Of a DNA stretch of 64,000 nucleotides, positions 26,958-30,157 are shown in pieces. The number at the start of each line of letters is the position of its first letter. The stretch's first letter is position 1. Origin of the DNA: an uncultured delta proteobacterium (lineage in GTDB: Bacteria; Desulfobacterota; Binatia; UBA9968); assembly GCA_963804165.1 (NCBI GenBank), contig CAWDPO010000017.1, positions 192,001 through 256,000 of the forward strand, in the 5' to 3' direction. Made by a program: the position numbers and the translations under genes. The notes under the pieces were generated by a model. It worked only from the letters and a program-made list of their open reading frames with translations. It searched no databases and was not told where the DNA came from.

Positions 26958-28281
26958 ATGGCGAAGATCATCGACGGTCTGGTTGAATATATGATGGCCT
27001 CCCGGTCGGCGAAACTGCCGCCGGAAGTGGTTCAAAAAGGCAAGAGTCATCTGCTCGATTCGCTCGCCGCTGTGGTTTCGGGTTCGACGTTGAAGCCCGG
27101 CAAGCTCGGATTGCAACACGCGCGCGCGCAAGGAGGCAAGGTAGAATGCAGCGTGCTCGGAACAAATCTAAAGACCACGCCGATCTTCGCGGCATTCGCC
27201 AACGGCATGTCCGGTCATGCCGATGAAACCGATGATTCGAACAGTCAACTCCATCCGGGTTGCGCGATCGTGCCGGCGGCGTTGGCCACGGCCGAGTCGC
27301 GGGATCGCGGCGGTGATGAACTTCTTCGCGCCGTGGTTCTCGGCTACGACATCGGTTTCCGTTTTCACCAGGCGTTTGCGCCGCGATCGACCAGCTTCGG
27401 CGCGACGTTTGGTTGCGCCGCAGCCGCTGGCACACTGGCGGAACTGGACGATCTGCAGCTGCGCTATCTCATTTCCTACGCCGCGCAACAGGCTTCGGGG
27501 TCGCGGGCGTGGGTGGGCGACGACGATCACATCGAAAAAGCCTTCGACTACGCGGCCATGCCAGCGCGCAATGGCGTAACCGCCGCGCTCTTGATCCGAT
27601 CCGGCTTCACGGGCAATCGCGACGTGCTCGAAGGCGATCAAGGTATTGTCAAGACGTACGCGCCGTGCGATCCGGCCATAGATACTGAGCGAGCTTGGTC
27701 AAAGATTCACGATTACCAGTTGCTTGATCAAGAAATATCCCGTGGGTTCGCCGATGATGGAAACGGTCGACGCCACGCTGGCTCTGCTTTCCAAGCAAGC
27801 CATTCAGCCCGAGCAAATCGAAAAAGTGATCGTGCGCATACCCGAGAGCGGCGCACGCACAGTGAACAACCGTCATATGCCCGACGTCAACGTTCAGTAC
27901 ATGGTCGCGGCGATCCTGCTTGAAGGCAAGCTCACGTTCGAAACCGCGCACGACTACGAACGCTTTCAAAATCCGCGGGTATTGGCGTTGAAGGAGAAAG
28001 TGGAGTTGATCGGTGATAAGGAGATGGAAGGCACCGGCCATCGGTTTCAAGGGCTTGTCGAAGTTACCTTGAAAGACGGCCGAACCTTGCGCGAGCACGT
28101 AATCGATTGCCGCGGTCGACCGGAGAACCCGATGAGCCCCGAGGAAGTTGAAAAGAAAGCGGCATGGTTGATGGAACCGATCTTGGGTAAAAAGAATGTC
28201 GATCAGATCATTGATTCAATCCGGCAAATTGAATTTGTGACTAACGTCCGTGATTTGACGAAACTCATGACGATGGCGTGA
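26958..28281 (+). CDS. MmgE/PrpD family protein, frameshifted
   Basis: ANGMSGHADETDD, HPG, KKYPVG, GRPENPM. Confidence 0.9.
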
Positions 28282-28415
28282 CCCATCCACCAATTCCTTC
28301 CCCCATGGGAGACTGTGTCGCAATGCTACAAATCATCTGGATGTCATGCTGAGCGCGAGCGAAGCATCTGTTTTTCCGACACCTTACGAAAAGCAGATTC
28401 TTCGCCTGCGGCTCA

Positions 28416-28621
28416 TCTATGAAAGCTTTGTCAAGGTATCTGTTAGTCACATATTGTTTTTTCTTCTCATGGTTTCGAATACACCAGTACTTATCGTCCG
28501 TGGCAAAGCGTACCCGATGTTATCGGACTCATCTATTCGCCGTCTAAAGCGGCAGAGAAAAATGCCACAGGGCTGTCGCAATCAGAATTCGGGTCTCAGT
28601 GGACCCATGAGCCGCGCGCGC
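28416..28621 (-). ncRNA. predicted bridge/seek RNA in the 3' non-coding end of the IS (exact ends unknown)
   Basis: RNA reads GCGGCUCA-U-GGGUC(CACUGA)GACCC-GA-AUUCUGA, matching both halves of the target; a second domain closed by GUGGCA/UGCCAC contains AUAGAUGA, matching the circle junction. Confidence 0.75.
28429..28434 (-). promoter_or_regulatory. -35 box of the circle-junction promoter
   Basis: TTGACA near the IS end; in the predicted circle it lies 17 bp upstream of TAATAT, ahead of the transposase RBS. Confidence 0.6.
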
Positions 28622-29662
28622 TTAGCCCTGCGTGGACGACATCGGTTCGCGATAGCTTTCTCCTTTTTTCAACATCCAGAAACTCGCCTCCGCCAAGTGT
28701 CGGGCCACGGCCACAATCGCTTTGCCGTGCCCCCGTCTGGCTTTGACATTTTCATACAGCCGGGCAACGTGTCGGTACTGGCAGCGCTCGCGGTTGAGCA
28801 CCGCGCTATTGGCCGCTTCGGTAAAGGCCCACTTCAGATAAAGATTCACATCCTTTCTCACCCGCCCGTAGCGCACCTTGCCGCCACTGGAGTTCTCCCG
28901 GGGTACCAGCCCCGCGTAACTCGCCAGCTGCTCGGCTCGGCCAAAGCGCTCGATCGTACCGATCTCAGTCCAGATCACCACCGCCAACATCTCACCCACT
29001 CCTGGCTCGCTCTGCAAATAAGTCGTCTCGGCACAGGGAGCAAAGGCTTGGCGCATTTGGCCTTCAATGGTCTTGAGATTGGCCTGCACATGGTCGAGCT
29101 CGTCGAGCATCAATCGCAGCGCTTGTTGGGTGTGCGGTGGCAGCTTGGAGCAAAGCTCTTCGATGATCTGTCGGCCCCGCTTGCCAAAGGCGTCGCTGAC
29201 GCCGTCGACCTTGAGCCCGTACTTCTCCAGAGTGGCGTGAATACGGTTCTTGAACTGGGTTCTCTGCTTGCTGAGCACCATGCGGGTGCGCGGCAGCTCG
29301 CGGGCATCACGAACCGCAGACGGCGCAATCCACACCGTCGGCAGGGTTCCGACTCTCTGCAAACGATTCATTCCCTTCGCATCGAGCTTGTCGCTCTTGT
29401 TCACGCTGCCGATCATCAGCTTGGCCAGTCGTGCGTTGACCAGTTGCGGCGATCCTTTCCCCGCCTCGATCTCATCGACTACCCAGTACCAGTTGCCCAC
29501 GGTCTCAACCGCCACCGGGGTTCCCGGACTCCACTTGTTGGTGAAGTTCTTAATCGTTCCTCGACTATGCGCCAGTTTACACTCAAAGAGCTTCTGGCCT
29601 TGGTCATTTTCTACCCGCGCCCAGGTGTAATGCTTATGAACATCCAATGCGACGTATTCCAT
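28622..29662 (-). CDS. IS110-family DEDD recombinase/transposase
   Basis: ALDVHK, VAVE, KSDKLDA, PGVG, YAGLVP..SSGG, AIVAVARHL; GGAGGAGG RBS; intact ORF. Confidence 0.95.
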   Translation of the reverse strand: MEYVALDVHKHYTWARVENDQGQKLFECKLAHSRGTIKNFTNKWSPGTPVAVETVGNWYWVVDEIEAGKGSPQLVNARLAKLMIGSVNKSDKLDAKGMNRLQRVGTLPTVWIAPSAVRDARELPRTRMVLSKQRTQFKNRIHATLEKYGLKVDGVSDAFGKRGRQIIEELCSKLPPHTQQALRLMLDELDHVQANLKTIEGQMRQAFAPCAETTYLQSEPGVGEMLAVVIWTEIGTIERFGRAEQLASYAGLVPRENSSGGKVRYGRVRKDVNLYLKWAFTEAANSAVLNRERCQYRHVARLYENVKARRGHGKAIVAVARHLAEASFWMLKKGESYREPMSSTQG

Positions 29663-29851
29663 TTGCGATTTCCTCCTCCAGCCGTCAGTCTATCTACCGA
29701 CGCTGCGGATTTCATCGCTTTCATATTAATCAGAATGACATTGCAAAACAGTCTCTAGACGAGGAAGGCAACGGTGGGGATGCAAGAAAAAATATTGAGG
29801 CTTTATTTAATGAGGATTTCGATGTCGATAAATAGATCAAGGAGGCCAGGC

Positions 29852-30157
29852 ATGAACATTAGATGTTTAAGTTTAAGTGTCGTTATTCTGGTTCTTTCGA
29901 GCTGTCACCTTGCGGAAGACTTTGCCGCAGACGATCATCGCCCCCGAGAGCGCGGGCGTAGTGCGTGCGTGGACCAGGCGCACGAGCAAGGTTATCGCAA
30001 AGTGGAGGTCCAATCCGTGCAATCCGTTGGCCCGGATCGCGGCCCGGGCATTTGGGAAGTTGCCATGCGTGGTATGGCCTCAACGGGGCGGGAGGTTAAA
30101 CTATCTTGCCAATACGATGCGCGGAGTCGTCGAGCGGCTGTGGGCCGTGTTGACTAG
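29852..30157 (+). CDS. small lipoprotein, hypothetical
   Basis: AAGGAGG RBS, lipobox LSSC, two further Cys. Confidence 0.65.
   Translation: MNIRCLSLSVVILVLSSCHLAEDFAADDHRPRERGRSACVDQAHEQGYRKVEVQSVQSVGPDRGPGIWEVAMRGMASTGREVKLSCQYDARSRRAAVGRVD

Follow-up and report, generated by a model that had tools for sequence, protein, structure and literature searches.

We analyzed a stretch of 64,000 nucleotides from an uncultured delta proteobacterium (Desulfobacterota; Binatia; UBA9968; assembly GCA_963804165.1, contig CAWDPO010000017.1, positions 192,001 to 256,000), hereafter the window, and characterized an insertion sequence (IS) that it carries. We consider, with a probability of about 0.9, that this is an intact and recently active IS110-family element of the IS1111 type, encoding a DEDD/serine recombinase and, in its right end, a two-domain bridge (seek) RNA of approximately 130 nt. 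Two guides in this RNA match the two halves of the repetitive extragenic palindromic (REP) unit that the element splits, and the guides change together with their targets both between two subfamilies in the host genome and across relatives elsewhere. A first-pass annotation of the window had proposed an intact RNA-guided recombinase programmed to a multicopy REP; at the level of sequence, that proposal is supported by the genomic copies, by guide–target co-variation, by covariation in the RNA structure and by recovery of the RNA with a covariance model. All coordinates are window positions, and the orientation of the element is that of the minus strand. The features are as follows.

28416..29732, minus strand: the whole IS (subfamily A), 1317 bp, counting one of the two flanking TCA/TGA triplets within the element
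29663..29732, minus strand: left end, 70 nt, with the core TG(A) separated by a 5-nt spacer from the subterminal inverted repeat (29725-29713), and the -10-like hexamer TAATAT (29728-29723)
28622..29662, minus strand: transposase/recombinase gene, 346 aa, with a DEDD (RuvC-like) N-terminal and a Tnp C-terminal domain; the sole long meaningful frame of the element
28416..28621, minus strand: right non-coding end, 206 nt, encoding the predicted bridge/seek RNA
28567..28631, minus strand: target-binding domain, whose internal loop is enclosed by two stems (outer, 8 bp; inner, 4 bp) and contains two guides parted by a small hairpin
28608..28615, minus strand: 5' target guide GCGGCUCA, complementary to the top strand in element orientation (core and right flank)
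28591..28606, minus strand: small hairpin GGGUC/GACCC between the target guides
28582..28588, minus strand: 3' target guide AUUCUGA, identical to the left flank and core
28500..28568, minus strand: donor-binding domain, in which the 3' donor guide lies between the invariant hairpin UGCCG/CGGCG (28554-28538) and a third hairpin (28526-28514), plus a closing stem
28554..28562, minus strand: presumed 5' donor guide UUUUUCUCU, weakly complementary to the left end
28528..28536, minus strand: 3' donor guide AUAGAUGA (28536-28529), matching the right element end and core, then a dinucleotide that agrees with the right target flank
28418..28434, minus strand: right subterminal inverted repeat (28430-28418), together with the perfect -35 hexamer TTGACA that overlaps it (28434-28429)
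28394..28415, minus strand: right part of the split REP unit (T variant)
29733..29739, minus strand: left part of the split REP unit (GTCATTC)
28343..28370, plus strand: intact partner REP unit (G variant), inverted, forming a REP doublet with the split unit

The ends of the element were confirmed by the four other full-length copies of approximately 100% identity in the genome, in all of which the similarity stops at identical bases; the termini are also common to one copy of 97% and four copies of 82–83% identity. The flanks read gcggctca up to 28415 and gaatgaca from 29733, with a 3-nt ambiguity at the boundary arising from the presence of TCA on either side. The first-pass annotation had described the IS as splitting a REP arm, and the joined flanks indeed restore one uninterrupted REP unit, without a target-site duplication and with the shared TCA/TGA as the recombination core; on direct re-reading of the sequence, all the motif coordinates of that annotation were correct. 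We narrowed the shared core to TG (element orientation) because there are relatives whose right flank starts with TGG instead of TGA. The terminal extensions outside the TG core are 5 nt on the left and 2 nt on the right, or 6 and 3 nt if the cut is placed inside the core.

Both target guides match the corresponding halves of the target where the first-pass annotation had placed them. Among 200,000 shuffles of the 206-nt end, an 8-mer match of this kind arose 503 times and a 7-mer match 2,574 times, and the two arose together 5 times. The bases AU(U) after the 3' target guide are the same as those with which the left end of the element starts; for AU, this holds in all elements.

The host assembly comprises 7.5 Mb in 46 contigs. 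Including that of the window, it contains five full-length copies of approximately 100% identity (subfamily A), one of which reaches a contig end. The other copies are one of 97% identity, four of 82–83% identity (subfamily B) and one that is truncated and rearranged. All five A copies and three of the B copies retain an open transposase frame. Some of these copies are identical and intact, which implies recent activity. Three copies are decayed: the 97% copy (C30:69031-70344) has two TGA stops and lies in a site that is not REP-like, another, of subfamily B (C20:85271-86588), is frameshifted and contains a TAA, and the third (C22:28900-29690) is truncated, with internal rearrangement.

Every A copy whose flank can be read is inserted at ...GCTCA|GAATGAC, and all four B copies are inserted at ...G(C/T)TCA|GCATGAC. 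A recognizable REP unit is present at eight of the nine copies for which both flanks can be read, as expected if the element is programmed to REPs; the exception is the decayed 97% copy, whose site shares the core-proximal bases only. For a tenth copy, that at the contig end, only the right flank is readable, and this is the same GAATGAC. The REP units have the form GTCAT-N-CTGAGC ... GCGAAG-N'-ATCT, in which N is complementary to N', and they are frequently arranged as inverted doublets of differing variants, as in the window. The 12-mers across the insertion site occur 30 times for the A type, 16 times for the B type and 29 times for a third, G/C variant, against an expectation of about 0.9. 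Among 251 GTCATNCTGA sites, the variable base is T in 92, G in 49, C in 101 and A in 9, with the compensating base in the opposite arm. Sites that fit the guides (4 nt + 8 nt) are also found unoccupied: for the A guides, three are exact and 29 more have one mismatch, and for the B guides, four are exact and 34 have one mismatch. In a rough check of extragenic location, which leaves out the C20 copy on the opposite strand, the stop-to-stop frames over the joined flanks were mostly short, with two longer ones of 230 and 312 codons, which leaves "extragenic" a tentative label for some copies. In addition, the Y1 transposase family PF01797 has 18 matches in the genome, possibly REP-associated transposases.

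Comparison of the two subfamilies, based on an alignment of the ten in-genome copies, links the guides to the choice of REP variant. The 3' target guide is AUUCUGA in subfamily A and AUGCUGA in subfamily B, and the B sites read GTCATGC|TGA; thus, the guides differ by a single base in the same way as the REP variants differ beside the core. The 5' target guide, (C)GCGGCUCA in A and UUUCGCUCA in B, fits G-rich and T-rich flank bases, respectively. The hairpin between the guides differs by two pair changes, both of which are compensated (G-C to A-U and U-A to C-G). The element termini of A and B are identical and the donor domain is nearly so, while the target domain differs. Two sister elements one guide base apart thus occupy REP variants with the corresponding base, which makes them a clean natural example, and the sequences point to the guides as what sets the target within this genome.

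The same relationship is seen among relatives from other sources. The transposase has matches (E up to 1e-60) in 10 of 90 genomes of the same taxonomic family, including its own. Twenty-one loci in genome contigs come from Candidatus Binatia, Nitrospirota/Nitrospira, Chloroflexota, Planctomycetota, Elusimicrobia, Spirochaetales and Dehalococcoidia, and metagenome contigs contain at least 568 relatives among at least 599 pattern matches, of which 80 were kept. The relatives are from 94% down to approximately 51% identical. A text pattern for the scaffold matched 68 of the 101 fetched loci, and most of the 33 misses were later recovered by a covariance model, R1 (see below). Eighty elements were parsed, from 82 with a target loop, two of which failed the donor-loop pattern. 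Their ends were located via the donor guide and the subterminal repeat; five of the 80 lacked the right-end 6-mer, and approximately 16 of the remaining 75 had no located left end. One locus, L061, was left out of the protein alignment owing to six stops in frame.

The 3' target guide is identical to the left flank over 4 nt plus the core in 50 of 58 elements, which represent 14 target classes. Over five positions, it matches its own flank at 3.75 positions on average (28 unique pairs), compared with 1.66 in mismatched pairings. Likewise, the 5' target guide matches at a mean of 4.84 of seven non-core positions (61 unique guide/flank pairs), compared with 2.59 in mismatched pairings. Because the position furthest from the core is the one that usually fails to match, we regard the 5' guide as approximately 6 nt plus the core. 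By hand count, the guides of L048 match at 8/8 and 7/7 positions, and those of L055, whose transposase is 92% identical to ours, match at 9/9 and 7/7 positions of a site that is not a REP; L055 is therefore a close relative retargeted to an unrelated site. Five other loci (L050, L069, L086, L092 and L104) have AUCCUG as the corresponding guide and occupy C-variant units of the REP family described above. Three relatives with transposases that are 92%, 77% and 75% identical (L055, L087 and L099, respectively) share a common non-REP target, ..CCTC|TG|A(G/A)CAGGC; the 5' guides of L055 and L099 fit it fully, and that of L087 has mismatches far from the core. The comparative data thus support, within the genome and across relatives, the co-variation of guides with targets, the outcome that had been set in advance as decisive for the first-pass proposal.

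The RNA itself has a conserved architecture. An alignment of 65 RNA regions shows a near-invariant frame consisting of AAGCGCG, a variable guide, CAUG, a hairpin, a second variable guide, UGAUUGCGAC, UGCCGC...GACGGCGAA, a further guide and UG. RNAalifold predicted 22 pairs, 15 of which are changed on both sides. In a trimmed alignment of 59 sequences, 97.8% of the cells are paired, compared with 82.4% in shuffled alignments, and 191 cells are doubly changed, compared with 62; none of 500 shuffles reached any of the observed measures, with the caveat that related sequences may exceed shuffles without any structure. Sliding the partners by 1–3 columns lowered the pairing to 30–44%. This control, like the diversity of pair types, speaks against an artefact of kinship. 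All eight pairs of the outer stem and all five pairs of the small hairpin (helix 3) co-vary. Almost no variation is seen in the inner closing stem or the donor hairpin. The minimum-energy fold of the single sequence contains the target domain, which proves nothing alone.

We built a covariance model, R1 (124 positions, 22 pairs), from the homologous IS ends, as the first-pass annotation had suggested, and it recovered the RNA in elements held out from its construction. In its own genome, R1 gave ten matches, which are the ten copies of the element that retain the right end, and nothing else (150 of 2,463 first-look candidates were scored). On 34 sources outside its building set, it matched 29, each just after a transposase match: 24 matches were full-length, with 23 at 86–127 bits and one (L068) at 48 bits, three were partial and two were cut by the end of the locus. 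Four loci among these 34 sources, which are missing the region or are distant, gave no match. In L065 (1762-1820) and L082 (893-951), R1 matches the target domain only (positions 5-63). L065 continues into an inverted second copy of the element, an arrangement that suggests nested or rearranged elements.

The donor-binding domain appears to read the element itself. The first-pass annotation had described a second domain that is closed by GUGGCA/UGCCAC and carries a guide for the predicted circle junction. The guide stands: AUAGAUGA matches the right end and the core. The closing stem (28568-28563 with 28505-28500) is good in subfamily A, is not retained in subfamily B and is absent from the RNAalifold consensus fold. 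In 75 of the 80 parsed relatives, the right end repeats the 6-mer of the 3' donor guide, which lies directly after the subterminal repeat in 71 of these 75; six variants of the guide change with the right end (e.g., ..UAGAUG, ..GAUAUG, ..GAGAUG, ..UACAUG, ..GAUUUG and ..GGUUUG). The dinucleotide just beyond the core of this guide (28528-28529 in the window) tends to agree with the right flank of the target: among 24 unique combinations, both bases match in 11, one base in 10 and neither in three. Compared with the left end of the element itself, both bases match in just one of 17. Handshake guides of IS621 pair with non-cognate DNA after strand exchange and favor insertion (PMC11208158 and PMC13626964). 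By analogy, we describe the dinucleotide matches, together with the AU after the 3' target guide, as a handshake-like pattern in an IS1111-type RNA.

The partner donor guide had been noted to match poorly, and our analysis agrees for the clade of the window. In a distant clade (protein identity approximately 55%), the bases immediately preceding the UGCCGC hairpin plainly complement the left end; CCAUCA faces TGATGG in L125, L127, L130 and L135, and changes in the segment follow the left end in several others. In the clade of the window, one position of UUUUUCUCU forms 15 Watson–Crick and two wobble pairs with the variable seventh base of the left end among 23 unique combinations (hand count), which suggests residual pairing in a shifted register. 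A mutual-information table for this guide is confounded by a 1-nt difference in the left-end spacer between the two clades, and the informative reading is the one made by eye within each clade.

The element encodes a transposase of the expected kind. The protein matches PF01548 (DEDD_Tnp_IS110; E 4.9e-13, 49.6 bits against a cut-off of 29) and PF02371 (Transposase_20; E 2e-21, 76.6 bits against a cut-off of 21.3). D7, E53, D91 and D94, together with GLVPRENSSG, are aligned and conserved in seven to eight relatives, and by analogy with the residues of IS621 (PMC11208158) and the motif in PMC11187229, these four residues and the C-terminal S/T-G would be catalytic. IS1111 elements are defined by a transposase of 330–350 aa with a GL-P----S(t)G motif (PMC11187229), and this protein has 346 aa and the motif GLVPRENSSG. 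IS1111 elements differ from the IS110 group in combining a short left end with a long right end and in having long subterminal repeats (PMC11187229 and PMC11208160), and their terminal extensions are "occasionally 6 bp and 3 bp" (PMC11187229). In the present element, the non-coding regions are 70 nt upstream and 206 nt downstream of the transposase gene, and the two subterminal repeats, with one of them reverse-complemented, agree at 11 of 13 positions, as read from the sequence. The closest plasmid match of the transposase is 32.8% identical. We accordingly place the element in the IS1111 group by its layout, subterminal repeats, and transposase size and motif, a placement that is predicted from sequence features; the named IS1111-family member compared pairwise was IS4321. 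The IS4321-family transposase is 22.6% identical over 97% of the length, and by eye the right end of IS4321 lacks the conserved scaffold motifs of the clade, a dissimilarity that does not show that the RNAs are unrelated, given the low protein identity.

No sigma-70-like promoter was predicted on the sense strand of the linear element. At the circle junction, in which the right end is followed by the left end, a perfect TTGACA, a 17-nt spacer and TAATAT come together. The rule applied to the linear form was passed at the junction by all eight unique contexts of the clade of the window and by none of 16 of the distant clade. This agrees with ISEc11, in which the sole promoter forms in the circle and a longer transcript is the source of the short RNA (PMC11187229).

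These features are consistent with the following mechanism, in which binding of the RNA by the protein, a circular intermediate, the chemistry of strand exchange and programmability are all inferred by analogy with studied elements. The 5' target guide (6 nt plus the core) would pair with the top strand of the target and the 3' target guide (4–5 nt plus the core) with the bottom strand, the two overlapping at the TG core inside the REP. In the donor domain, one guide would pair with the right end and the core, while a weaker segment would face the left end. The recombinase–RNA complex would then join a circular copy of the element with the REP site, and the strands would be exchanged at the core without duplication of the target. 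The circle-only promoter, in which 17 nt separate TTGACA of the right end from TAATAT of the left end, would drive expression of the recombinase and, by read-through, of the RNA.

Several observations weigh against this interpretation or temper it. Some guides fit their sites imperfectly: by eye, the 5' guide matches five core-proximal bases and 6/8 bases overall at the C14 copy, and it fits six core-proximal bases at the C30 copy, whose site is not a clear REP. Some relatives also misfit, e.g., at the left flank of L125, and the left end of several loci was missed by the parsing rules. The 5' donor guide is a poor match to the left end in the clade of the window, fitting only in a register shifted by one and with two central mismatches, and by eye only approximately four pairs of the donor closing stem are possible in subfamily B. 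The relatives are not independent of one another, and their kinship means that the covariation counts overstate the support. Folded by itself, the sequence has unexceptional stability (z = -0.98; 35 of 200 shuffles do as well). No Rfam family matched this RNA in a search of 28200-29900 (E up to 1), and R1 misses the right end of IS4321, so that homology to experimentally studied scaffolds is not established. No direct sign of transcription emerged from the sequencing runs described below; contigs from RNA libraries cannot show transcription, RNA ends or strand.

These points bear on three other explanations. The guide-like segments might be remnants of REPs captured by the right end, or chance resemblances, the protein alone picking the target. 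Such an origin would gain from the abundance of REP units in the genome and from the unremarkable stability of the single-sequence fold. We nevertheless hold it to be extremely improbable: relatives in non-REP sites (L048, L055 and L113–L140) carry flank-matching segments at the same positions of the scaffold, the single-base change between subfamilies A and B is matched exactly, and the joint occurrence of both matches in 5 of 200,000 shuffles speaks against chance. Alternatively, the recombinase might read the REP hairpin as a DNA structure, in the manner of REP-associated tyrosine transposases or IS200/IS605 enzymes, with the 3' RNA otherwise employed, e.g., in regulating transposase expression. 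The target is palindromic and its variant base co-varies with the partner base, which suggests a folded form, and in ISPpu9 a downstream small RNA is not needed for transposition (PMC12288879). Members of the same clade are, however, inserted with matching guides in sites that are neither palindromic nor REPs, and the guide positions vary freely within a near-invariant scaffold, which fits a programmable guide and not a regulator; structure reading is thus very unlikely.

The remaining explanation retains an RNA-guided IS and concerns the donor side only: the left donor arm might be read by the protein via the long subterminal inverted repeats, leaving the RNA with three of the four guides. 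The poor fit of the 5' donor segment in the clade of the window, set against the clear complement that the distant clade retains, and the high conservation of the subterminal repeats (11/13 alike) lean toward it, whereas the one position of the segment that co-varies with position 7 of the left end (15 Watson–Crick and two wobble pairs among 23) suggests that some pairing persists. We consider this explanation unlikely on balance. If true, the decayed left-end donor guide would represent a three-guide variant of bridge recombination. We would advance only hesitantly the broader picture to which it belongs, namely a large uncharacterized IS1111-type clade of uncultured soil bacteria that has a compact, near-invariant scaffold with no Rfam family, whose lineages share out the variants of a single REP family by single-base guide changes and in which the left-end donor guide has decayed and the arm may be protein-read via the subterminal repeats. 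Our preferred interpretation remains a recombinase guided by a two-domain RNA to a REP variant.

That interpretation fits the published bridge RNA/seekRNA mechanism of IS1111-type elements and is an ordinary but well-supported instance of it. In four IS1111-family elements, a right-end RNA co-purifies with the transposase, is needed for transposition and can be reprogrammed (Siddiquee et al., PMC11187229). In the seekRNA, the complement of the top strand comes before that of the bottom strand, and the two overlap in the target (PMC11187229). Bridge RNAs are predicted in the right end of 93% of ISfinder IS1111 elements (Durrant et al., PMC11208160). The seekRNA elements ISEc11, ISPa11, ISKpn4 and ISPst6 resemble the present element in the long downstream non-coding region, the subterminal inverted repeats and the lack of target duplication. 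They also share the top- then bottom-strand complements overlapping at the insertion point, the lack of an internal promoter and the promoter at the circle junction (PMC11187229). Unlike those elements, which were studied experimentally, the present one is known from sequence, and its hosts are uncultured soil lineages.

The bridge RNA of IS621 and the IS110 group (Durrant et al. 2024, PMC11208160; Hiraizumi et al. 2024, PMC11208158; a 2026 paper on directionality, PMC13626964) is likewise a two-domain RNA with target and donor loops that read both strands around a dinucleotide core, and IS621 also shares the handshake-type dinucleotides, the REP target and the junction promoter. In contrast, the RNA of IS621 lies in the left end and that of the present element in the right end, with the order of the guides in each loop reversed; the core is CT in IS621 and TG here, and the subterminal repeats are long here. 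Occupancy of REPs by IS621, ISPpu9 and ISPpu10 has long been known (PMC12288879), and ISPa11 targets a Pseudomonas REP (PMC11187229). ISPpu9 and ISPpu10 of Pseudomonas are similar to our element in having multiple copies at one precise REP position in one genome; ISPpu9 differs in belonging to the IS110 group and in having a downstream small RNA, Ssr9, without which it can still transpose (PMC12288879), whereas here the downstream RNA has the anatomy of a guide RNA.

The first-pass annotation had also called the element a candidate new programmable recombinase. This is valid in the generic sense that applies to any intact IS110/IS1111 element; the claim to novelty falls away, as REP targeting and bridge/seek RNAs at the 3' end have already been published (PMC11187229 and PMC11208160). 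With many such elements catalogued and REP targeting established, the element opens no new question. The family alignment nevertheless defines a short conserved scaffold (a guide of 6 nt plus the core, a guide of 4 nt plus the core and a handshake-like donor dinucleotide) that is usable in surveys of IS1111 bridge RNAs.

Sequences of the element and its relatives were also detected in public sequencing runs. Between 37 and 95% of the sampled words of the element are present in 14 DNA-type runs from seven studies (soil, urban and other metagenomes), one of which may be the sample of origin, compared with 5–8% in RNA libraries. Comparison of four RNA libraries with the element yielded contigs of relatives, two of which are 95–99% alike and lie inside the transposase gene; one contig that is 88% alike spans the 3' end of the transposase gene into the target domain.

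The sole Rfam match in the region searched was to the mir-498 precursor at 28342-28424 (24.4 bits, below the gathering score of 85; E 0.072), which we rejected as a palindrome artefact of the REP doublet. Just upstream of the element, an MmgE/PrpD-family gene lies in two overlapping frames, with its N domain at 26958-27923 and its C domain at 27724-28281; this split represents either a frameshifted gene or an assembly error. The same genome additionally contains more distant IS110-family transposase genes (24–38% identity), some as identical copies, at C6:244534, C34:115226, C15:59419, C34:140637, C12:27133, C26:32957 and C28:25007-25980.

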